A stretch of 32,000 nt of DNA from Phycisphaera mikurensis NBRC 102666. GTDB taxonomy: Bacteria > Planctomycetota > Phycisphaerae > Phycisphaerales > Phycisphaeraceae. Positions within the stretch are counted from its first letter, which is position 1. Each line of letters opens with the position of its first letter. The stretch is from NCBI RefSeq assembly GCF_000284115.1, contig NC_017080.1, positions 1,920,001 through 1,952,000 of the forward strand, in the 5' to 3' direction. The notes below the pieces were generated by a model that ran no database searches, had not been told where the DNA came from, and saw only the letters and a list, made by a program, of their open reading frames with translations. Of this stretch, positions 10,007 to 30,820 are shown piece after piece. A program made the position numbers and the translations under genes.

Positions 10007-11914
10007 ATGCCGGCCGCTCCCTCCCGCCCCTCCCCGCTGCCCGCTCCCGCGCCCGGCGTGCGGCGTCGGCGGGCCGTCGGCGGCCTGGTCCGACGCATCC
10101 CGCTGCTCCTTCTCGCCGCCTGGCTGCCGCTCGCCGTCGTGGCCGCCGAAGCGGCCGACGCCCTCGGGGGAGCCGGCGGCGTGTACGGCGGCGAGGCCCG
10201 CGTCTGGCGCGTCGGCCCGGGGGCCAAGGCCCAGACGATCCGGATCGACACCGGGCCGCTCCCCGGCGCGGGCGAAGCGGCGACGCTGCGCCGCGCGACC
10301 GCCCTGCGTGGCCGCGTCGCGGCCGCGGCGTCGGGCCCGGGCGGTCGCTCGCTCTGGCTGGTTCTCGGCGGCGGGGCGGTCCGCGAGCTCACGGCGGCCC
10401 CGCCCGCCGCCTCCGGTCGCTTCGCGCCGCGGATCGACCTGCGGCCCGCCGCCGACCTCCCCGCGGGCGAGCGGGCGGTCGCGCTGCTCGCGGTGGAGGA
10501 CGGGCTGTGGGTCCTGACGCGGCCGGCCGACGCGGCGGCGACGGCCGGCGGGGCCGCGGCCGAGCCGGAAGCGGCGGCCGTTGCTTCAGGACCGGCCTCG
10601 GAGGCCGCCCCCGCCGGAGACGCCGCCGAGCCCGCCACCCGCTCTCGCGCTATGGAGCTCCGCCTGCTCGGCGTCGGCGGGGCGTCGCCTCCCGCGCCAC
10701 CCGAGAGCCCTCGGCCGGCGACGGCCGGGCCCGCAGAGCCCGCGCCGCCCGCCTCGCTGCTCTTCCTGGGCCGCCAAGGCTGGGAGCGGCACGCCGCTCC
10801 GGGCGGCGCCGGAGCGGAGGGCACCGACGCCTTCCTGCTGCCGGCCGGAGACGCCGCCGATCCCGGCAGGCCCGCGGTGCTGCTGCGCGACGCCGCGGGC
10901 GGGCTGACGCTGCACGACCCCGCCGCGGGCGGAGGCGGCGACGCCGGGGCCTGGGCGAGGCGCAGCCTCGGCACGAGCCCGCCGCTGATCGCCGCGCCGC
11001 TGCCGCTGGACGGCGGGGCGGTGCTGCTGTTCGGCGGCGAGGCGGACGCGGGAGCCTCCGCGGAGATCCTCCGCCCGGCCGCGCCCAAACCGCGCCTCCC
11101 GCTTGCCGACGCGGAGCCCGCACTCGCCGCGGAGGGCCCGCTCGCGGGGGCCTTCGCCGGCAACGGCCGCTGGTGGCTGGCGCGGGAGGCCGATCCGCCT
11201 CCCGCCGGCGCCGCCGCGCCCGCGTGGCTGCGCTGGGCCGCCGAGGCGCCGGCCGAGGAGGGGCTCTCGCTCGTGCCCGTCTCCGCGGAGGGCACCCCGG
11301 GCACGCCGCGGGCGGTGGGCGTCAGCCGCAACCCCGCCGGCGGCATCGCGGCCGACTTCCCGCTGCTGCTGCTCGTGCTGATGGTCGCGACGATGGCGAC
11401 CTTCCTCTTCTGGCGGCGGGACCCCAGGAAGCAGGAGCTGCGGCTCGGTCCCGATCAGCGGCTTGCCACGACGCCGACGCGGCTCGCCGCCGCCGCGATT
11501 GACCTCCTTCCGGGCCTGCTGCTGGCGTGGCTGGCCTTCGGTTCCACGGCCGAGTCGCTCTTCGCCCACTGGCCCGGCCTCGGGCGGCCCAGCACGCCGC
11601 TGCAGACGCTCCCGCCGCTGCTCGTCGTGGGCGTCACCACGCTGCACACCGGCCTCGCCGAGGCGGTGACCGGGCGGTCGCTCGGGAAGCTGCTGCTGCG
11701 GCTGCGGGTGGCCGATCTCGCCGGCGGCCGCGTGGGCTTCGGCCGGGCCCTGCTGCGCATGGCCATGAAGCCCGTCGACCTGCTCGCCGTGCTGCTGCTG
11801 GTGCTCCCGCTGATCAATCCGCACCGCCAGCGCTTGTGCGATTTGGTCGCGGGCACGGTGGTGCTGGGGCCGGCGGGCTCCGACGCGGACCGGGGCGCGT
11901 CGCCGGGGCCGTGA
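10007..11914 (+). CDS. RDD-domain membrane protein with a large Ala/Gly/Pro-rich N-terminal exported region
   Basis: The 635 aa ORF has an N-terminal signal/anchor (IPLLLLAAWLPLAVVAAEAA). The C-terminal 190 aa match the RDD family layout (RLAAAAIDLLPGLLLAWLAF ... GRSLGKLLLRLRV ... RQRLCDLVAGTVVL). Third-position GC is high throughout. Confidence 0.65.
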   Translation: MPAAPSRPSPLPAPAPGVRRRRAVGGLVRRIPLLLLAAWLPLAVVAAEAADALGGAGGVYGGEARVWRVGPGAKAQTIRIDTGPLPGAGEAATLRRATALRGRVAAAASGPGGRSLWLVLGGGAVRELTAAPPAASGRFAPRIDLRPAADLPAGERAVALLAVEDGLWVLTRPADAAATAGGAAAEPEAAAVASGPASEAAPAGDAAEPATRSRAMELRLLGVGGASPPAPPESPRPATAGPAEPAPPASLLFLGRQGWERHAAPGGAGAEGTDAFLLPAGDAADPGRPAVLLRDAAGGLTLHDPAAGGGGDAGAWARRSLGTSPPLIAAPLPLDGGAVLLFGGEADAGASAEILRPAAPKPRLPLADAEPALAAEGPLAGAFAGNGRWWLAREADPPPAGAAAPAWLRWAAEAPAEEGLSLVPVSAEGTPGTPRAVGVSRNPAGGIAADFPLLLLVLMVATMATFLFWRRDPRKQELRLGPDQRLATTPTRLAAAAIDLLPGLLLAWLAFGSTAESLFAHWPGLGRPSTPLQTLPPLLVVGVTTLHTGLAEAVTGRSLGKLLLRLRVADLAGGRVGFGRALLRMAMKPVDLLAVLLLVLPLINPHRQRLCDLVAGTVVLGPAGSDADRGASPGP

Positions 11915-23332: not shown

Positions 23333-24289
23333 TCACTCGGGCGCTTCGAGCGTGCGCAGCGAGAGGCCCGCGGCGACCAGCTTCTCCTTGATCTCATCGA
23401 GCGTGGTGGCGCCGAAGTTCTTCACGCCCATCAGCTCCGCTTCGGTCATCATGACCAGGTCGCCGAGGCTGTCGACGCTGAGCAAGGCGAGGGCCTTGCG
23501 GGCCCGCACCGAGAGGTCCAGCTCGCCGACGCTCCGCTCCATCAGGTTGCCCTCGCCGGACTCGGCCTCGACCTCGGAAAGCCGCTCCTCGCGGGCCTTC
23601 TCCTGCGCCCGCTCGAGGTCCTGGCCCAGCCGCAGCCCCTTCTGGGCGAGCATCGACTTGATCTCGTCGATGCTGGCCTCGCCGAAGTTCTTGTAGCTGC
23701 GCAGCTCGGCCTCGGACACGCGGAGGAGGTCGCCGAGGGTCTTGATGTCCATCTTGCGCAGGCTGTTGCGCGTTCGGTAGTCCATCTCGAAGTCCGTCAC
23801 CGGCACGTCGAGCAGGGCGGCGTGGCGATCGTCCCGCTTCTCCTGGTCGTCGTCGATGACCATCTCGCGCGAGGCGAGGATGTCCTTAATGAACAGCCGG
23901 GCCCGGGCGTGGTTGGGGTCGGTCGCCAGCACCTGGCGGACGCAGCGCTCGGCCTGGGGCAGCTTGCCGCGGTCCTCGTAGAGCACGGCGAGGTTGATGA
24001 GCGCGTGCAGCGGCGCTTGCGGGGTGCGGACGCACTCCTCGTAGAGGTGGATCGCCTCGTCCTCCTCGCCGAGCAGGTCGAGGTTGTAGGCCAGGCGGAA
24101 GCTGATGTTCGCGTCGTCGGGGTCGGCCGCGTAGGCGGCTTCGTACTTCTCGACGGCGCCGACGCGGTCGCCCGCGTCCTCGAGCTTCTGGCCCTCGCCG
24201 AAGGCCTTGCCCGCGGCGGCGCTGTCGCGGAAGTCGCCCTCGGCGGCGGTCTCGTCGGTGGAAGGGGTCGTTGCTTCGGATTCGGCCAT
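23333..24289 (-). CDS. TPR-repeat protein with two RNA polymerase alpha-subunit C-terminal-domain-like (helix-hairpin-helix) modules
   Basis: The ATG at 24289-24287 gives MAESEATTPS. The N-terminal half is TPR-like (AVEKYEAAYAADPDDANISFRLAYN, LAVLYEDRGKLPQAERCVRQVLATDPNH). Two repeats follow that match the alpha-CTD pattern (RTRNSLRKMDIKTLGDLLRVSEAELRSYKNFGEASIDEIKSML and VRARKALALLSVDSLGDLVMMTEAELMGVKNFGATTLDEIKEKL). Confidence 0.75.
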   Translation of the reverse strand: MAESEATTPSTDETAAEGDFRDSAAAGKAFGEGQKLEDAGDRVGAVEKYEAAYAADPDDANISFRLAYNLDLLGEEDEAIHLYEECVRTPQAPLHALINLAVLYEDRGKLPQAERCVRQVLATDPNHARARLFIKDILASREMVIDDDQEKRDDRHAALLDVPVTDFEMDYRTRNSLRKMDIKTLGDLLRVSEAELRSYKNFGEASIDEIKSMLAQKGLRLGQDLERAQEKAREERLSEVEAESGEGNLMERSVGELDLSVRARKALALLSVDSLGDLVMMTEAELMGVKNFGATTLDEIKEKLVAAGLSLRTLEAPE

Positions 24290-24292
24290 GGC

Positions 24293-24349
24293 GGGGCTCC
24301 GGGGCGGGGCGGGTAAGCGGGGCGGGGGGCGGGCCCGCCGGGGGGCGGG
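24293..24349 (+). other. Dense strand-asymmetric G-tract cluster (G-quadruplex-capable) in a divergent promoter region
   Basis: At least nine runs of 3 or more G within 57 nt on the + strand, read directly: GGGGCTCCGGGGCGGGGCGGGTAAGCGGGGCGGGGGGCGGGCCCGCCGGGGGGCGGG. It begins 4 nt from the start codon of the minus-strand alpha-CTD/TPR gene. Confidence 0.7.
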
Positions 24350-24533
24350 ATCGCCGGGAAGCACCGGGAACGGGGAGGACGCGGCGCCGCGAGGCGCACG
24401 AGCGGACCCCGCCCGCCGGGCGCAGGGCGAGGAGGCTAGGCCGGTTGCCGCCGACCCGCAAGGCGAGGTAGGCTGCTTCACCCGAGGCGGAGCGGCCCCC
24501 CGCGTCTCCTCCGCCCGGACCCCCAGACCCGTT

Positions 24534-26429
24534 TTGACCCAAGCCGCGATCCAGGCCGACCTCCCGGGTGCCCTGCCCGCCCGCGGCTTCGATGAGGCCG
24601 AGCGGCTCGTGCGCTTCGGCGGCCCGCCGGACGCGTTCCTCGCCGAGCTCCTGCTGGCGCAGTGCCGCTTCGCCGGCGCGGCGGGCGGGGCGGTGCTGCG
24701 CCGAGCCGAGGGCGGCCCGGGCGTGGAGTGTCTGCAGAGCGTGCCGCCGGGTGCGGCGGGTCGGGATCCGGAGGAGGAGGCGGCGCCGCCTTGGCTGCGG
24801 GAGGTGGCGGGGGTGGTCGGTGGCGCCGGCGGCTGGCCGCGGGAGGCGGCGAGCTTCCCGCTGGAGTCCGGCGACGGGCTCTACGGCGAGGATGGGCAAC
24901 GCCACGCGGTGGTGCTGCCCCTGGGCGCCTTCGCCAGCCTCGACGCCGTGGCGGCCTTCGTGCTGGAGGGCTGCGACGCCGACGAGGCGCACCACGCCTG
25001 CCGCCGGCTGGCCTTCACGCTCTCGATGCTCACGCTCTACGAGGCGCGGCAGGCGCTGGGGGCGCGCGAGGCGGACCTCCGCGGCCTGGCGCTCGCGACG
25101 GGCACGCTGGCGGCGCTGAACCGGCAGGGCCGCTTCGGCAGCGCGGGCCTGGCCTTCTGCAACGAGGTCGCGAGCCGCTTCGAAGCCGAGCGCGTCAGCT
25201 TCGGCGTGGTTCGCGGCCGGTACGTGAAGCTGCGTGCGATGAGCCAGACCGAGCACGTGCACCGCAAGATGGCGGCGGTGCAGGCGATCGAGGCGGCGAT
25301 GGAGGAGTGCCTCGACCAGGACACGGAGGTGCAGCACCCCGCGGCGCCCGAGGAGCCGGTGGTGGCGCGGGCCGCGGCGGAGCTGGCGCGGCGCGAGAGC
25401 TGCGACGCCGTGATCTCGCTGCCGCTGCGGCGAGCCGGAGAGGCGGAGGCGGTGGTGACGCTGGAGCGGGCCAGCCGCGGGCTCGACGCGGCCGAGGCGT
25501 CCTTCCTTCGGCTCGCTTGCGAGCTGTGCGGCCCACGCTTGCTGGAGATGGAGGCCGCGGACCGCTGGGTGGGGGCGCGGGCCGCGGCCTCGGTCCGCCG
25601 CGGCCTCGCCCTGTTCGTGGGCCCAACGCACACCTGGGCGAAGGCGGCGGCCATCGGGCTGCTGGCGGCCCTTGCCGTGGTGACGCTGGTGGACGTGCCC
25701 TTCCGGGTGGATGCGCCCTTCGAGCTGCAGGCGGTGACGCGGCGGCAGGTGCCCGCGCCCTTCGAGGGCTACCTCGCCACGGTCGCGGTCCGCGCCGGCG
25801 ACGTGGTGCAGGCCGGCGACGTGCTCGGCGAGCTGGACACCTCGGAGCTTCAGCTGGAGCGTGCCCGGCAGCAGGCCGAGCGGCTCACGCACCAGAAGGA
25901 GGCCGACGAGGCGCGGCGGGAGGGCAAGACCGTGGACGTGCAGATCGCCGAGGCCCGCGCGGCCGAGGCGCAGGTTCAGGTGGAGCTGAACGACCACCAG
26001 ATCGCTCAGGCGACGCTGCGGGCTCCGGTGGCGGGGAGCGTCATCTCCGATGACCTCCAGCAGAAGCTCTTCAGCCCGGTGAAGCGCGGCGAGCTGCTGT
26101 TCGAGGTCGCCCGGCTGGGGCAGCAGCGGGCGGAGATGCGGGTGAGCGACGAGGACATCCCCTGGGTCCGCGAGGGCCAGACCGGCAGCCTCGCCCCGGC
26201 ATCGACGCCGGGCGATCCGGTCGGCTTCCGGGTGGGCCGCATCGAGCCCATCGCCGAGGTCGTTGACGGCGAGAACGTCTTCCGCGTGCGGCTGGAGCTG
26301 CTGGAGAGCCGCCCGTGGTTCCGCCCCGGTGTCGCCGGCGTCGCCAAGATCGACGTCGGCAAAGGCAGCATCCTCTGGGTCTACACGCGCGAGGCGGTCA
26401 ACTTCGTGAGGTTGAAGCTGTGGCTGTGA
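24534..26429 (+). CDS. HlyD-family periplasmic adaptor with an N-terminal cytoplasmic region of about 330 aa (tandem GAF-like domains)
   Basis: The C-terminal 300 aa have an adaptor layout. It runs TM (AAAIGLLAALAVVTLV), lipoyl-like hairpin (GYLATVAVRAGDVVQAGDVLGELD), coiled coil, LRAPVAGSVI, then a beta-barrel. The N-terminal GAF assignment is pattern-based. TTG 24534 is proposed as the start: third-position GC is high after it and poor before it (gta, cga, gga, aga, gtt). The ATG at 24207 would overlap the divergent gene. Confidence 0.7.
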   Translation: MTQAAIQADLPGALPARGFDEAERLVRFGGPPDAFLAELLLAQCRFAGAAGGAVLRRAEGGPGVECLQSVPPGAAGRDPEEEAAPPWLREVAGVVGGAGGWPREAASFPLESGDGLYGEDGQRHAVVLPLGAFASLDAVAAFVLEGCDADEAHHACRRLAFTLSMLTLYEARQALGAREADLRGLALATGTLAALNRQGRFGSAGLAFCNEVASRFEAERVSFGVVRGRYVKLRAMSQTEHVHRKMAAVQAIEAAMEECLDQDTEVQHPAAPEEPVVARAAAELARRESCDAVISLPLRRAGEAEAVVTLERASRGLDAAEASFLRLACELCGPRLLEMEAADRWVGARAAASVRRGLALFVGPTHTWAKAAAIGLLAALAVVTLVDVPFRVDAPFELQAVTRRQVPAPFEGYLATVAVRAGDVVQAGDVLGELDTSELQLERARQQAERLTHQKEADEARREGKTVDVQIAEARAAEAQVQVELNDHQIAQATLRAPVAGSVISDDLQQKLFSPVKRGELLFEVARLGQQRAEMRVSDEDIPWVREGQTGSLAPASTPGDPVGFRVGRIEPIAEVVDGENVFRVRLELLESRPWFRPGVAGVAKIDVGKGSILWVYTREAVNFVRLKLWL

Positions 26430-26430
26430 G

Positions 26431-26562
26431 AGCGGAGATGAAGCGGGTGAAGAAGTGAAGAAGTGAGGAAGCGAAGAAGTGAGCAGCAGCAGTGGATCCA
26501 GGAACCGGCCGGCGGAGCCGCCGCGTCGTGCCTGACTTCTTCTCTTCTTCGCTTCTCCGCTT
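26431..26562 (+). repeat. Intergenic inverted array of octamer repeats
   Basis: Tandem octamers GTGAAGAA, GTGAAGAA, GTGAGGAA, GCGAAGAA, GTGAGCAG occupy 26447-26486. Complementary units TTCTTCTC, TTCTTCGC, TTCTCCGC occupy 26537-26560. The segment 26449-26468 is complementary at 18 of 20 positions to 26531-50, and AGCGGAGA (26431-38) pairs with TCTCCGCT (26554-61). A 12-nt direct repeat CCGGCGGAGCCG occurs at 26509-20 and again at 26565-76, abutting the ATG at 26577. Confidence 0.85.
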
Positions 26563-26576
26563 GACCGGCGGAGCCG

Positions 26577-28766
26577 ATGCAAAGACCCACCTTCCACGAG
26601 TCCTGGTACCGGATCTCCGCCCTCCGGCCGCGGCTGCGCGCGGTGGTCCAGGTGTTCCGGCAGCGCTTCCGCGGCAAGACCTGGCACGTGCTGCGGGACC
26701 CCGCGAACAACCAGTTCTTCCGGCTCGACGACGCGGGCTTCCGCTTCGTCGGGCTCCTCGACGGGAAGCGAACCGTGGGCGAGGCGTGGGAGGCCACCGC
26801 GGCGCAGCTGGGCGACCGGGCCCCGACGCAGGGGGAAGCGGTGCAGGTGCTCGGCCAGCTGTACCAGAGCAACCTGATCGCGGCGGAGCTGCCGGCCGAC
26901 GCCGAGGGCATGTTCGACCGCTTCAAGCGGCGCCGGCACAAGCAGGTGGGCGGCTACCTGATGAACATCATGTTCGCGAAGATTCCGCTCTTCGACCCCG
27001 AGCACCTGCTCGAGCGGTGGAAGCCGGCCTTCATGTGGATCTTCGGCCCCGTGGGCGTCGCGCTCTGGCTCGCGCTGATCGCCGCCGGGTTGCTCTCGCT
27101 GGGAGGCCGCGCCGAGGAGCTGCTCGGGCAAGCCGGCAACATCCTGGATCCCTCCAACTGGATCTTGCTCTACGCCGCATTCGGCCTGGCGAAGGTGCTC
27201 CACGAGTTCGGCCACGCCTTCGCGGTCAAAGCCTTCGGCCGCTCGGAGCAGGTCGAGGCCGAGGTGCACGTGCTCGGGGTGATGCTGCTGGTGCTCGTGC
27301 CGGTGCCGTACGTGGACGCGACGGGTTCCTGGGCGTTCCGCTCGAAGTGGCGGCGGGCGTTCGTGGGCGCGGCCGGCATGTACGTCGAGCTGGCGCTCGC
27401 CGCGGTGGCGGCGATCGTCTGGTCGCAGACGTCGCCCGGCGTGGTGCACGCGCTGGCGTACAACGTGATCTTCATCGCCGGCGTCTCGACGATCCTCTTC
27501 AACGCGAACCCGCTGATCCGCTTCGACGGGTACTACATCCTCTCGGACCTCACCGAGACGCCCAACCTCTACCAGCGCAGCAACGACTACCTCAAGTACC
27601 TCGTGCGCCGCTTCGCCTACCGCGTGCGGGAGCCGCACAACCCGGCCCAGAGCCCGGCCGAGCGGCCGTGGCTCGCGGCCTACGGCGTGTGCTCGCTGGT
27701 CTACCGGGTGCTGCTCTTCGGCGGGATCCTGCTGTTCGTGATCGGCAAGATGTTCTTCGTGGGGGCGTTGATGGCGGCGGTCTCCATCGTCGCCTGGCTG
27801 TTCGTGCCGCTGGGCAAGTGGGTGCGTTACCTGCTGACCTCGCCGGAGCTGGCGCGGACGCGTGGGCTGGCGCAGGGGGTCTCGCTGGCGGCGGTGGCGC
27901 TCGTGGCCCTGGGGGTGGGCGTGGTGCCGGCCCCCGACCGGCAGCGGGCGGCAGGCCTGGTGGAGCCGGACCGCTTCGAGGCGGTTTTCTCCCGCAGCGA
28001 CGGCTTCATCGACGCGGTGCTGCCGACGCTGTCGCCCGCGGACCAGGGCGTGCTGGTGGCGGCGGGCAACCGCGAGCTGCTCGCCCGGCGCGACCGGCTG
28101 GAGGCGCGGCTGGGCCTGCTCGCGGCGCAGCAACGCAAGGCCGAGCGGGAGGACGTCGCGTCGGCGCAGGTGGTGCGGCGGCAGCACGAGGCGACGGCGG
28201 GGCAGCTCGCCCGCGTGCGGTCGGAGATCCAGATGCTCTCGCTGTCTGCCCGCGTAGGCGAGGCCGGGCAGCCGGCGTGGTGGGTGGGTCCGGACGTCGA
28301 CCGCTTCAAGGGGGCGTTCGTCCCCCGGGGGGAGGCGCTGGGGGTGGTCGCTTCTCTGGAGGACCTGGTGATCCGCGTGGCCGCCGACCAGCACCTCGGC
28401 CCGCGGCTGCGGGGCGAGGAGTGGATCGGCCGGGCGGTGGAGGTGAAGACCGCCGGCCGGCCGGACCTCACCTACGCGGGCCGGGTGGAGCGCGTGGGGC
28501 CGGCCGGCACCGAGCAGCTTCCCTCGGCGGCGCTGGGCTTCGCCGCCGGCGGACCCATCGCCACCGACGCCCGCCGCACCGACGGGACCACGGCGGCGGA
28601 GGCCGTCTTCGAGGTGCGGGTGCGGGTGCTGCCGACGGCGTCCGACCAGCCGCCGCTGCGGGCGGGCCAGCGGGTGATGGTGCGCTTCCGCTTTGCCGAC
28701 CGCCCGCTGATGACCCAGGCGGTGCTGGCGCTGCAGCAGCTGTTCCAGGGCCGGGTGGGCGCGTGA
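26577..28766 (+). CDS. Polytopic site-2-protease (peptidase M50)-like zinc metalloprotease fused to a C-terminal HlyD-like adaptor region, with an N-terminal PqqD/RRE-like domain
   Basis: The 729 aa ORF has HEFGH at 27201-27215 and NANPLIRFDG (NxxPxxxxDG) at 27501-27530, the two S2P zinc-site motifs, both inside hydrophobic segments. The N-terminus (FFRLDDAGFRFVGLLDGKRTVGEAWEATAAQLG...AVQVLGQLYQSNLI) resembles PqqD-like peptide-binding winged helices. The C-terminal 290 aa have a coiled coil plus beta-rich HlyD-like layout. Confidence 0.8.
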   Translation: MQRPTFHESWYRISALRPRLRAVVQVFRQRFRGKTWHVLRDPANNQFFRLDDAGFRFVGLLDGKRTVGEAWEATAAQLGDRAPTQGEAVQVLGQLYQSNLIAAELPADAEGMFDRFKRRRHKQVGGYLMNIMFAKIPLFDPEHLLERWKPAFMWIFGPVGVALWLALIAAGLLSLGGRAEELLGQAGNILDPSNWILLYAAFGLAKVLHEFGHAFAVKAFGRSEQVEAEVHVLGVMLLVLVPVPYVDATGSWAFRSKWRRAFVGAAGMYVELALAAVAAIVWSQTSPGVVHALAYNVIFIAGVSTILFNANPLIRFDGYYILSDLTETPNLYQRSNDYLKYLVRRFAYRVREPHNPAQSPAERPWLAAYGVCSLVYRVLLFGGILLFVIGKMFFVGALMAAVSIVAWLFVPLGKWVRYLLTSPELARTRGLAQGVSLAAVALVALGVGVVPAPDRQRAAGLVEPDRFEAVFSRSDGFIDAVLPTLSPADQGVLVAAGNRELLARRDRLEARLGLLAAQQRKAEREDVASAQVVRRQHEATAGQLARVRSEIQMLSLSARVGEAGQPAWWVGPDVDRFKGAFVPRGEALGVVASLEDLVIRVAADQHLGPRLRGEEWIGRAVEVKTAGRPDLTYAGRVERVGPAGTEQLPSAALGFAAGGPIATDARRTDGTTAAEAVFEVRVRVLPTASDQPPLRAGQRVMVRFRFADRPLMTQAVLALQQLFQGRVGA

Positions 28767-30820
28767 GCAGCGGTGTGGTCGCCCCGACGCCGCGGACCGT
28801 GGCCGCCGGAGAGCTCCTCGGCTCGCGGTCCGCGGGATCCGGCGCGGCCGACGCGGCCACCCGCCTGCCCAGCGGGCGGTGGCGGCGGCTGGCGGCGCCG
28901 TCGGGGCCTCCCACGCCGCTGCGCGGCCTCGACGCGGCTTGGGACGCCGTCGTCGCCTGCGCGGTGCCCTGGGTGCCGCGGCGTCGCCGCTGCCTGCGCC
29001 GCGCGGAGCGGGTGCTGGCTTTGGCGGCGGGGCTGGAGGCCCTGCCCACCGCGGAACTCGCCGAGCAGACCCGGGCGGTCGCCGAGCGCTTCCGCCTCGG
29101 CCGCGACACCGCGGCCGACCTCGACCTCGCGTTCGCGGTCGTCCGCGAGCAAGCCACCCGCGTGCTCGGCTTGCGGGCCTACCCGGTGCAGGTCGCCGCG
29201 GCGATCGCGATGGAGCGCGGCGCCATCGCCGAGGTGGCGACCGGCGAGGGCAAGACGCTGATCGCCACGATGCCCGCGGTGCTCGCGGGCTGGCGTGGCC
29301 GCGGCTGCCACGTGCTCACCGCCAACGACTACCTGGCGGCGCGGGACGCCGAGAAGATGCGGCCGGTGTACGAGGCGTGCGGTCTCACGGTCGCCTCCGT
29401 CGTCGACGCCACGCCGCAGGAGGCCCGGACCGCCGCGTACGCCGCCGGCGTCACCTACACGACCAACAAGGAGGCGGCCGCGGACTTCCTCCGCGACCGG
29501 ATCGTCGCCGGCCGCGACGCCTGCCTCGCGGACGGATTGTTGCGCGAGCTGGTGCGGGGCGCGGGGCTGGGCTCGGGCCGCGGCGTCGCGGGCGTGCAGC
29601 GTGGGCTCGAGCACGCGATCGTCGACGAGGCGGACGCGGTCCTGATCGACGAGGGCACCACCCCACTGATCATCTCCGGAGAAGCCCCCAGCCCCGGACG
29701 GGAGCAGGCCCACCGCGAGGCGGTCGGCCACGCCGACGCCTTCTCCCGCGGCAGGGACTACCGCGTCGACGAACGCTTCCGCGAGGTGGTGATGACGCCC
29801 GCGGGCCGGGCCCGCGTCGCCCGCCTCGCGGGCACCTCGTCGGGCATCTGGAGCGGGCGTCGCCGCGCCGAGGAGCTCCTGAACCAGGCCATCACCGCCC
29901 GCGAGCTCTACCTCGCCGGCCGCGACTACGTGGTGCAGGACGGCAGAGTCGTCATCGTCGACGCCTTCAACGGCCGGTTGATGCCCGATCGCAGCTGGTC
30001 CGACGGGCTGCACCAGGCGGTGGAGGCCAAGGAGCGGCTGGCGCTCTCACCCCCGCGGGAGACGCTCGCGCGCATCTCCTTCCAGCGCTTCTTCCGCCAC
30101 TACCGCCACCTCTCGGGCATGACCGGGACCGCCCGCGAGGAGCGACGCGAGCTTTGGAAAACCTACCGGTGCCCGGTGGTCGCGCTGCCGACGCACCGGC
30201 GGCCGCAGCGGCGCGATCAGGGCATCCGCATCACCCGCAGCCGCGACTCGCGGATCGCCGAGGTCGTGCGCGACACGCAGGAGAAGCGGTCGGTCGGCCG
30301 GCCCGTGCTCATCGGCACGCGGTCGGTGGCCGAGAGCGAGCGGCTCAGCGAAGGCCTCGAAGCGGCCGGCATCCCGCACCGCGTGCTCAACGCCGTACGC
30401 CACGGCGAGGAGGCCGCGGTGGTCGCGGGGGCCGGCGAGGTCGGGCGCGTCACGCTGGCGACCAACATGGCCGGCCGCGGCACCGACATCGCCCTCGGCG
30501 AGGGCGTCGCGGAGCTCGGCGGCCTGCACGTGATCGTCTGCGGGATGAATGACGCCCGCCGCGTCGACCGCCAGCTCTTCGGGCGGGCGGCCCGCCAGGG
30601 CGAGCCGGGCTCGGCCGTGATGGTCTGCTCGCTGCAGGACGGTCTGCCGGTGCAGCACGCCCCGCGCGTGGTGCGGGCCACGCTGGGGCGGCTCTTCCCC
30701 CGGGGGGTCTTGCGGCTGGCGCAGCGGCGGGCGCAGAACCGGGCCCGTTCGCAGCGTGCCGGCGTGCTGAAGCGCGACCGCTGGCTCGCGGAGAGCCTCG
30801 GCTTCGCCGGCATCGAGTGA
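28763..30820 (+). CDS. SecA-like DEAD-motor ATPase, truncated after NBD2 (no helical wing or C-terminal linker, and little or no helical scaffold)
   Basis: GTG 28763 overlaps the stop of the M50/HlyD gene (GTGA), and third-position GC is high from that codon. SecA motifs are present: FAVVREQATRVLGLRAYPVQV, ATGEGKTL (Walker A, 29240-), LTANDYLAARDAE, IVDEADAVLIDEGTTPLIISG (DEAD at 29624-29635), a PPXD-like segment (DYVVQDGRVVIVDAFNGRLMPDRSWSDGLHQAVEAKE), TNMAGRGTDI and RVDRQLFGRAARQGEPGS. Only about 68 residues follow the last motif. The start is uncertain by tens of codons. Confidence 0.8.
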   Translation: MSSGVVAPTPRTVAAGELLGSRSAGSGAADAATRLPSGRWRRLAAPSGPPTPLRGLDAAWDAVVACAVPWVPRRRRCLRRAERVLALAAGLEALPTAELAEQTRAVAERFRLGRDTAADLDLAFAVVREQATRVLGLRAYPVQVAAAIAMERGAIAEVATGEGKTLIATMPAVLAGWRGRGCHVLTANDYLAARDAEKMRPVYEACGLTVASVVDATPQEARTAAYAAGVTYTTNKEAAADFLRDRIVAGRDACLADGLLRELVRGAGLGSGRGVAGVQRGLEHAIVDEADAVLIDEGTTPLIISGEAPSPGREQAHREAVGHADAFSRGRDYRVDERFREVVMTPAGRARVARLAGTSSGIWSGRRRAEELLNQAITARELYLAGRDYVVQDGRVVIVDAFNGRLMPDRSWSDGLHQAVEAKERLALSPPRETLARISFQRFFRHYRHLSGMTGTAREERRELWKTYRCPVVALPTHRRPQRRDQGIRITRSRDSRIAEVVRDTQEKRSVGRPVLIGTRSVAESERLSEGLEAAGIPHRVLNAVRHGEEAAVVAGAGEVGRVTLATNMAGRGTDIALGEGVAELGGLHVIVCGMNDARRVDRQLFGRAARQGEPGSAVMVCSLQDGLPVQHAPRVVRATLGRLFPRGVLRLAQRRAQNRARSQRAGVLKRDRWLAESLGFAGIE

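Follow-up and report, generated by a model that had tools for sequence, protein, structure and literature searches.

A PqqD-like domain fused to an intramembrane protease and an HlyD domain in Phycisphaera mikurensis: a candidate leader peptidase of a SecA-like/HlyD module

What does a protein do that combines, on a single chain, a domain of the type that binds leader peptides, an intramembrane protease and a periplasmic adaptor domain, when no gene for a substrate is seen beside its own? This question is raised by a gene on the forward strand at positions 26577–28766 of a 32,000-nucleotide stretch of the genome of Phycisphaera mikurensis NBRC 102666 (NC_017080.1, positions 1,920,001 to 1,952,000; GC content approximately 75%), a stretch that we refer to as the window and to which all positions without a further label belong. 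A first-pass annotation, made from the letters of the window, had placed the open reading frame (ORF) correctly, from an ATG at 26577 to the stop codon at 28766 on the + strand, and had proposed that its 729-amino-acid (aa) product serves the recognition, cleavage and export of a small peptide. Our comparative analysis describes the protein as a putative intramembrane leader peptidase that depends on an RRE (the recognition element of peptides that are made on ribosomes and modified after translation, RiPPs) and is fused to a membrane-fusion domain, within a previously noticed, uncharacterised SecA-like/HlyD module. We propose that it forms the inner-membrane core of an envelope-spanning, type-I-like exporter without an ATP-binding cassette (ABC) transporter, in which the RRE would read, and the protease would remove, the N-terminal LEPR-XLL tag of giant proteins that are encoded beside the module in other genomes; having weighed the evidence set out below, we remain evenly divided over whether this reading is correct.

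Domains and topology of the fusion protein

The segments of the protein, all on the + strand, are as follows (S2P, site-2 protease; MFP, membrane-fusion protein):

26577..28766, + strand: RRE-S2P-MFP fusion, 729 aa, 100% identical to a P. mikurensis protein
26577..26648, + strand: N-terminal extension, residues 1–24, RPTFxESWYRVxxLRPRLR, mean column conservation 0.81
26649..26888, + strand: PqqD/RRE-like winged helix, residues 25–104, predicted to be cytoplasmic (Pfam, model, Foldseek)
27030..27536, + strand: S2P (M50-like) catalytic transmembrane core, residues 152–320 (hydropathy, model)
27201..27215, + strand: HExxH zinc site H209, E210, H213, invariant in 69 sequences
27501..27530, + strand: second S2P motif N309-x-N-P312-x4-D317-G, with N309, N311, P312 and D317 invariant
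27660..27932, + strand: three further transmembrane helices, residues ~362–452 (hydropathy; model helices 362–391, 393–421, 429–449)
27933..28763, + strand: periplasmic HlyD/MFP domain, with an alpha-hairpin (helices 499–525 and 527–552) and beta domains

The stretch that the first-pass annotation had likened to the PqqD/RRE pattern corresponds to residues 47–101, and its assignment was borne out both by a Pfam score above cut-off and by a predicted winged-helix fold. Pfam PF05402 (PqqD) aligned residues 37–101 to profile positions 2–67 of 67, with 24.1 bits (E = 4.5e-5) for the full protein and 28.3 bits (E = 2.3e-6) for the isolated domain against a curated gathering cut-off of 23.4 bits, and the same profile was matched by all of the 30 homologous N-domains scanned (best E 1.4e-8). 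The AlphaFold2 model (pLDDT 86.5 for the full length; pLDDT 88 and pTM 0.80 for residues 1–112) shows a beta3-alpha3 winged helix over residues 25–104 with a pLDDT of ~95, in the order beta25-31, beta34-41, beta46-50, alpha52-59, alpha67-81 and alpha85-97. When this fold was compared with the PDB using Foldseek, the top matches included the leader-bound lasso-peptide RREs TbiB1 (5v1u, 5v1v) and 6jx3, followed by LynD and CteB, with TM-scores of 0.62–0.69 on these small targets and probabilities of 0.97–1.0. Searching PDB sequences with an N-domain profile gave PqqD itself (5sxy) as the top match, albeit a weak one (E 0.15); the matches of a whole-protein profile were EmrA and, weakly, MjS2P, with no RRE among them. 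On the combined evidence from profiles and predicted structure the RRE assignment is sound, with no single structural score being decisive.

The pattern of conservation is consistent with a domain that holds a ligand. Invariant residues are found on beta3 (R49) and on or beside alpha3 (P83, T84, Q85, E87, L95, N99 and L100), and these are the elements that hold leaders in known RREs. The N-terminal extension, modelled with a short helix (10–13) and a strand (17–20), is the best-conserved segment of the whole protein, with R3, P4, T5, F6, W10, R12 and P18 invariant or nearly so. Mean column conservation reaches 0.76–0.81 for the RRE and this extension versus 0.54 for the MFP domain; a ligand that is likewise conserved from phylum to phylum, like the LEPR-XLL tag, would be in keeping with this.

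The fusion of this domain to an S2P-type protease with intact catalytic residues and to an HlyD/MFP domain, as already seen in the first reading, is supported by invariant motifs and by Foldseek. The protease core consists of a first transmembrane helix, the HExxH helix, a re-entrant beta-hairpin and two more transmembrane helices ending in NxxPxxxxDG, modelled as helices 158–175, 192–224, 257–284 and 289–309 with strands 231–238 and 241–247; H209, E210, H213, N309, P312 and D317 are sited in helices 192–224 and 289–309 and show no exception in 69 homologues. The score of the window protein with Pfam M50 (PF02163) lies below the cut-off (16.8 versus 27.2 bits), and orthologues from four loci (L025, L029, L030 and L031; L numbers are our own labels for loci) as well as the Escherichia coli and Burkholderia variants discussed below score above it (27.9–34.7 bits). 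The NCBIfam model daptide_HExxH (NF041824) matched residues 18–409 with an E-value of 3e-43, and YydH/LiaK was matched at 1.8e-6. The NF041824 score is 148 bits against an equivalog cut-off of 300; by sequence comparison the protein is a homologue of the daptide intramembrane metalloprotease and not a member of that family. At the other end of the chain, the C-terminal ~280 residues matched Spr0693, MacA, AcrA, MexA, EmrA and ZneB in Foldseek comparison with the PDB (E 2e-10 to 1e-7), and the PDB sequence-profile match to EmrA had an E-value of 1.4e-4; Pfam HlyD_3 is weak on this protein (17 bits, cut-off 22.2) and above cut-off in orthologues.

Seven transmembrane helices together with the re-entrant hairpin are predicted to give an N-in, C-out topology, which follows from the odd number of helices, from the charge distribution and from the MFP domain being necessarily periplasmic. 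Lysine and arginine residues number 9, 6, 8 and 4 in the predicted cytoplasmic segments versus 1, 0 and 1 in the periplasmic loops, thus obeying the positive-inside rule, and the three helices of residues ~362–452 carry the chain to the periplasmic side. A position of the S2P active site near the cytoplasmic face is strongly supported by this model. The first-pass annotation had staked its proposal on PqqD/RRE similarity and on a location of the domain outside the periplasm: the similarity is found, the RRE is predicted to be cytoplasmic and the HlyD domain periplasmic.

A conserved module and its giant neighbours

A scan of a genome collection yielded 31 loci from Phycisphaerae, Planctomycetales, Verrucomicrobiota, Gamma- and Betaproteobacteria. 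In nearly all of them a gene for a GAF-HlyD protein lies directly upstream of the protease gene and one for a SecA-like ATPase directly downstream, and the order of this trio is kept wherever the contig allows, in the 31 loci as well as on alphaproteobacterial plasmids; the other neighbours within the window (pabB, a TPR/RpoA-CTD gene and fliS) are not conserved across related loci. Whilst the protease/HlyD fusion had been recognised at the outset, its membership in this three-gene module had been missed: the same gene set and order, a "secondary SecA_DEAD" with M50/HlyD and GAF/HlyD proteins, was described by Kamneva, Poudel & Ward (2015, PLoS One, PMC4452313) from Planctomycetes, Verrucomicrobia, Proteobacteria, Nitrospirae as well as Chlorobi (one Chlorobi species). 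The module in P. mikurensis fits that description, with a truncated SecA (DEAD, PPXD and NBD2) beside M50/HlyD and GAF/HlyD. Kamneva et al. proposed by computation a type-I-like secretion role in which the ATPase would be SecA_DEAD and the membrane component the M50 protein, and reported no PqqD/RRE, DUF3467, substrate or experiments; the link to giant LEPR-XLL proteins and the SecA-less sister variant described below are new here. An ABC transporter is not conserved in any related locus that we examined, and likewise not in theirs.

In database records the SecA-like protein is named inconsistently, as "DEAD/DEAH box helicase", "translocase" or "preprotein translocase subunit SecA", and the "prepilin peptidase" on a plasmid of Methylosinus sp. 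C49 (L043, 3176–5089; 174172–176088 in the record) is a SecA-like ATPase (SecA_DEAD 1e-103, PP_bind and P-loop_SecA).

Outside the window the module is repeatedly flanked by large or giant adhesin-like genes of ~1,000 to 12,700 codons. In all seven annotated alphaproteobacterial plasmid loci inspected, a same-strand gene of 12–38 kb lies immediately upstream, named by PGAP, the NCBI annotation pipeline, as an Ig-like, LEPR-XLL, LamG-like or calcium-binding protein; the order is giant gene, DUF3467 gene (6/7), GAF-HlyD, RRE protease and SecA-like gene (missing in Thalassospira); five of the seven clusters have a gene for a short MFP at another position, and in two a TolC gene follows. When the LEPR motif was searched for in the six reading frames of all loci, 10 matches in 9 distinct loci were obtained (L003, L012, L022, L023, L025, L030, L032/33 and L038; L032 and L033 are near-identical), each at residues 16–68 of an ORF that has 850 aa or more and lies directly beside the module. 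NCBIfam NF012209 (LEPR-XLL) matches 9 of these 10 N-termini, 8 of them above cut-off. A LEPR-XLL protein is found beside the module in 9 loci of the PVC group (Planctomycetes, Verrucomicrobia and Chlamydiae) and on at least 5 alphaproteobacterial plasmids. In the tag, a basic stretch precedes the motif [FL]-[ED]-x-[LMIF]-E-[PQ]-R-x-[LM]-[LF]-[ST]-[AT], as in the example RFEPLEPRVLLSASLL, and most N-termini checked carry both parts. With a hidden Markov model built from 13 LEPR N-termini, the loci and the window yielded no additional sites, though for the training loci such a search is circular; in three more loci the module is flanked by giant ORFs that have their N-termini outside the contig. 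The tagged neighbours contain PKD, SdrD_B, CARDB, cohesin, lectin and Ig-like repeats, which is the composition one would expect for proteins that are secreted or displayed on the surface, and the giant neighbours carry no Sec signal peptides.

The 30-kb Ig-like gene on plasmid pRlX3 of Rhizobium johnstonii (L058/L056; 315825–345980) has its annotated start at about residue 96 of the Mesorhizobium ciceri homologue, and comparison of the two suggests that its N-terminus, hence any LEPR-XLL tag, has probably been cut off by annotation.

A 24-aa LEPRxLL N-terminus has been reported on the 36,806-aa and 20,647-aa proteins of Chlorobium chlorochromatii, which were described as lacking a known export signal and as co-expressed with a horizontally acquired secA. 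In the literature that we searched, no paper tying LEPR-XLL to the module turned up, and beyond Kamneva et al. it links none of PqqD with M50 and HlyD, DUF3467, DUF4347 and the secondary SecA.

All ORFs of at least 25 aa from the 31 loci were clustered, all against all, and no recurrent small family was found except DUF3467 (PF11950; 100–130 aa, Pfam E 1e-18 to 1e-24). Also recurrent is a short protein of the HlyD type, with ~280–300 aa. When loci are anchored on the protease gene, DUF3467 is present in 15 of 34 and the short MFP in 13 of 34, in upstream, divergent or downstream position, and each of the three DUF3467 proteins that were looked up is encoded in a five-gene operon of short MFP, DUF3467, GAF-HlyD, RRE-S2P-HlyD and SecA-like genes. 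The DUF3467 gene occurs in L004, L005, L008, L009, L011–L013, L015, L016, L018, L022, L026, L028, L032–L036 and L038 and in the plasmid loci L040–L045 and L056; among 11 plasmids with a DUF3467 gene, the RRE-S2P-HlyD gene is 2–5 kb away in at least nine. It often stands immediately 3' of the giant gene, the two overlapping by 4 nt in Pontibrevibacter and R. johnstonii, or immediately 5' of GAF-HlyD, and L028 has two tandem copies. The protein is conserved from end to end with no variable core, and has a polar, disordered N-terminus and no signal peptide. A comparison of its profile with the PDB returned chance matches only and no solved relative. A SecB-like identity found no support in sequence comparison, hhalign giving a probability of 0.2% with an E. 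coli SecB query. DUF3467 also occurs in bacteria that lack the module. It is mentioned for P. gingivalis in one paper. A TolC gene adjoins the module in the Thalassospira, Methylosinus, E. coli and Burkholderia loci.

A sister variant with neither a SecA-like gene nor DUF3467 is found on plasmids of E. coli, Citrobacter, Burkholderia and Azospirillum, as in L051 (E. coli pABWA45_1, NZ_CP022155.1, 118682–138427) and L052 (Burkholderia anthina). Its gene order, read in E. coli and Burkholderia, is a giant Ig-like/DUF4347 gene, TolC, short MFP, MFP and M50-HlyD; the giants start with a basic stretch followed by FALESRQLFDGA or LALEPRVVYDAS, and the N-domains of the proteases align weakly to the RRE profile and keep the DPxxNxFFRL strand. 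At an identity of at least 99%, the E. coli version is present in 24 of 5,426 complete E. coli genomes and is mostly plasmid-borne. PGAP labels the protease fusion only as "HlyD family efflux transporter periplasmic adaptor subunit". A plasmid of Thalassospira marina (L042; 193606–212571 in the record) carries a LEPR-XLL gene together with DUF3467, GAF-HlyD, protease fusion, short MFP and TolC and has no SecA-like gene among them, and here the motor is either dispensable or encoded elsewhere.

The core of the module in P. mikurensis

Around the protease gene of the window the following features were identified:

24534..26429, + strand: GAF-like cytoplasmic domain, one transmembrane helix and periplasmic HlyD/MFP domain, ~631 aa
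26430..26565, + strand: long imperfect hairpin in the spacer between GAF-HlyD and the protease gene, whose 5' arm carries GAAG-type and whose 3' arm carries CTTC-type repeats
28763..30820, + strand: truncated SecA-like ATPase, ~685 aa, consisting of NBD1, PPXD and NBD2 only

The start of GAF-HlyD is probably TTG 24534 and not the beginning of the mechanical ORF (24207), since homology to orthologues, which have 621–647 aa, begins near residue 130 of the 740-aa ORF. Its HlyD part is clear from Pfam (HlyD_3 2.1e-13, HlyD_D23 1.1e-11, Biotin_lipoyl_2 3e-7) and from NCBIfam RND_mfp (5e-22), and the match to GAF is weak (0.087). The SecA-like gene has its likely start at GTG 28763, overlapping the stop codon of the protease gene (GTGA), and its product (SecA_DEAD 1.8e-89, SecA_PP_bind 2.5e-25, P-loop_SecA 1.6e-43) aligns to residues ~23–558 of Bacillus subtilis SecA only: its Walker A, DEAD and arginine-finger motifs are retained, as is the PPXD clamp, and the chain ends after NBD2, without scaffold, wing and two-helix finger and without the parts that contact SecY. 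SecA domains truncated in a similar fashion are found in giant Omnitrophota proteins.

The spacer between GAF-HlyD and the protease gene contains inverted repeats at 26453–26483 and 26532–26562, with an RNA folding energy of -66.6 kcal/mol (z -2.5). In an 83%-identical relative (L039, 9785–10005) the hairpin is built from a different repeat unit and its stem is nonetheless longer (dG -113.6, z -5.5; of 200 shuffles, not one was as stable), which indicates that the two arms co-vary; in other lineages the same spacer has just 20–60 nt. The hairpin may be a processing, attenuation or terminator element; in Methylobacterium extorquens an internal terminator after the GAF gene has been inferred (Kamneva et al. 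2015, PMC4452313). The mini-ORF MKRVKK (26438–26458) was rejected as a gene: it lies inside the 5' arm of the hairpin and has no ATG in L039.

As had been stated in the first-pass annotation, no substrate gene is visible: the window has no DUF3467 gene, LEPR-XLL motif or conserved small ORF, and alignment with L039 showed no conserved small ORF in the spacer 26430–26576 or upstream of GAF-HlyD. DUF3467 and the short MFP are likewise not found beside the module in L039. The remaining genes of the window are ordinary metabolic ones, with no RiPP tailoring enzyme, ABC exporter or TolC found within the 32 kb. The P. mikurensis window holds the three-gene core only, and cargo, DUF3467, short MFP and TolC, if present, are encoded elsewhere.

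Two further observations concern other genes of the window. The divergent neighbour at 23333–24481 (- strand) encodes a TPR protein that also carries the C-terminal domain of RNA-polymerase alpha twice (RNA_pol_A_CTD 1.9e-34, in two stretches), an unusual architecture; it accompanies the module only in the closest relative (L039, 6612–7565), and its true start is probably ATG 24289, giving 318 aa. Between 10001 and 12000 the GC fraction rises to 0.78–0.83 over an ORF at 10007–11914, of which only a C-terminal RDD domain is recognisable, the long N-terminal part having no family match.

Readings of the module and their meaning

In the reading that we prefer, the cytoplasmic RRE would bind the LEPR-XLL tag of nascent or unfolded cargo through strand addition along beta3 and alpha3, possibly with DUF3467 as a cargo-specific chaperone or adaptor, and the SecA-like motor would clamp the chain and feed it from N- to C-terminus at the expense of ATP. 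The S2P site would remove the tag, and the analogy with daptide leaders predicts a cut at LEPR or just behind it; the three kinds of MFP would build a periplasmic duct to a TolC-type channel, and the GAF-like domain would gate the system on a small ligand. Domain identities, catalytic residues, topology, synteny and the recurrent tagged giant neighbours are the observations from which we infer these steps of binding, cleavage, channel formation and energy coupling. The broader claim, that this is a distinct secretion pathway in which an RRE has been recruited as the receptor for an N-terminal LEPR-XLL tag, with the protease as both leader peptidase and inner-membrane platform and with GAF-MFP, short MFP, TolC, a SecA-like motor in most lineages and often DUF3467 as its partners, is one that we advance tentatively and hold to be somewhat short of even likelihood. 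The export of LEPR-XLL-tagged giants, as the likely function of the module, is new as far as the searched literature shows.

The closest precedent is MpaP, in which a cytoplasmic RRE is fused N-terminally to an intramembrane site-2 protease that removes the daptide leader; the leader motif ELExMEAP has two indispensable residues, L(-7) and M(-4), and is cleaved behind P(-1) (Ren et al., bioRxiv 10.1101/2023.03.08.531785). The P. mikurensis protein is homologous to MpaP over RRE and protease core, with no change in domain order. Judged by eye, the pattern and spacing of the LEPR-XLL core, [FL]-E-x-[LM]-E-P, are those of the daptide [LF]-E-x-[ML]-E-[AP]. The P. mikurensis protein differs from MpaP in its lower score with the daptide model, in its three extra transmembrane helices and fused MFP domain, in having a SecA-like ATPase and MFPs as partners in place of daptide tailoring genes and short precursors, and in its likely substrates, which would be proteins of thousands of residues. 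In case of the peptidase-containing ABC transporters that act with HlyD proteins in type I secretion of the bacteriocin or PCAT kind, the logic would be the same, an N-terminal leader being read and cut and the cargo exported by a single inner-membrane unit via an MFP with or without TolC; however, the module has neither ABC transporter nor C39 peptidase, the RRE would read and the S2P would cut, and by this analogy a SecA-type motor would give the energy, the source of which is unexplained in the SecA-less variant.

Type I secretion of giant adhesins (LapA/LapBCE, SiiE/SiiCDF) also resembles the module in that giant repeat-rich proteins are encoded beside MFP and TolC genes. The LapA and SiiE systems depend on an ABC transporter, with a signal at the C-terminus, which is exported first; in the Lap system the N-terminus is processed, and LapG is a periplasmic cysteine protease. 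By contrast, the signal of the module would be N-terminal and its protease is predicted to be intramembrane and to face the cytoplasm, and the ABC transporter that marks classical type I secretion is missing from the window and not conserved in any related locus. With the site-2 proteases RseP, SpoIVFB and MjS2P the protein shares HExxH in a transmembrane helix, a re-entrant beta-hairpin, a later NxxPxxxxDG helix and an active site near the cytoplasm, whereas its accessory domains are RRE and MFP and not PDZ or CBS, no anti-sigma-type substrate is encoded near it and its Pfam score is below cut-off.

Several points weigh against the export of tagged giants by this module. The support is wholly comparative or predicted, the Foldseek E-values of the RRE are modest (0.016–0.14) with the generic winged helices Rv2067c and NO66 scoring similarly, and the resemblance to daptide leaders is a by-eye pattern match and was not computed. 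S2P enzymes normally cut transmembrane or strongly hydrophobic segments, whereas the LEPR-XLL tag is only weakly hydrophobic. That a seven-helix protease domain forms or lines a protein-conducting channel is hypothetical. A large or LEPR-tagged neighbour is seen in only ~10 of the 34 protease-anchored loci within the fetched flanks; the giant on the Alisedimentitalea plasmid has no motif at its annotated start, and that of R. johnstonii has a start that is apparently mis-annotated. The E. coli-type and Thalassospira loci indicate that the motor is not universal, so that the energy source there is unexplained, and in the window itself the genes for cargo, DUF3467, short MFP and TolC are all absent.

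A first alternative, which we regard as unlikely, is regulated proteolysis and not export: the S2P would cut a tethered or N-terminally retained protein, either for adhesin release as in LapG-LapA or to yield a signalling fragment, with the GAF domain as control and the HlyD domains as scaffold or sensor. S2P enzymes are classically signalling proteases and the GAF-like sensor domain is always present; in addition, the GAF gene is expressed apart from the rest of the operon in M. extorquens (Kamneva et al., PMC4452313), and in P. mikurensis the conserved hairpin parts GAF-HlyD from the protease gene. However, three paralogous MFPs, TolC and a polypeptide motor of the SecA type are components of transport machinery that regulated proteolysis does not explain, giant neighbours without Sec signal peptides need an export route, and a cytoplasmic RRE and active site imply that cleavage would take place before export and not after it; release controlled by cleavage would, moreover, fit the proposed exporter as an added layer.

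Less probable again is that DUF3467 is the ligand of the RRE, as cargo and substrate or as a docked adaptor, with the giants linked only indirectly. As the sole recurrent small protein of the operon, often abutting the giant gene or GAF-HlyD, duplicated in tandem in L028 and having a disordered polar N-terminus and no signal peptide, it would be a candidate; against this, roughly half of the loci, the SecA-less variant and the window are without DUF3467, the protein has no motif like known leaders and also occurs in bacteria that lack the module, and its adaptor version is compatible with the export of tagged giants.

A RiPP-type pathway, in which a small peptide encoded elsewhere would have its leader bound by the RRE and cut off by the protease, with HlyD aiding export, is highly improbable: although the nearest curated relatives are leader peptidases (MpaP and YydH/LiaK), the RRE-S2P fusion is the architecture that led to daptides and NCBI names some homologues "PqqD family peptide modification chaperone", the daptide score reaches only about half of its cut-off, the more than 50 related loci examined have neither a tailoring enzyme nor a short hypervariable precursor nor an ABC exporter as a conserved companion (genes for oxidative decarboxylase, aminotransferase and methyltransferase and short precursors being found neither in these nor in the window), the only recurrent small gene, DUF3467, is conserved at full length, the RRE itself is highly conserved across phyla, unlike a fast-evolving leader reader, and the recurrent neighbours are giant surface proteins, a SecA-like motor, two more MFPs, DUF3467 and TolC. 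From the original proposal, recognition, cleavage and export retain the backing of MpaP homology, whilst the small-peptide framing is not supported, no precursor, tailoring enzyme or ABC exporter being conserved in these loci.

If the export of LEPR-XLL-tagged giants by the module is correct, it would supply a missing export route for some of the largest known bacterial proteins, including the LEPRxLL proteins of 20,000–37,000 aa from Chlorochromatium consortia. LEPR-XLL giants occur in many phyla and have no known export signal according to the single study on the motif that we found, and they would then have a dedicated route. The role of the RRE would be widened from peptide natural products to protein secretion, and a type-I-like system would be driven by a SecA-type motor instead of an ABC transporter; with a related system on E. 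coli plasmids, a standard host could be used for its study.

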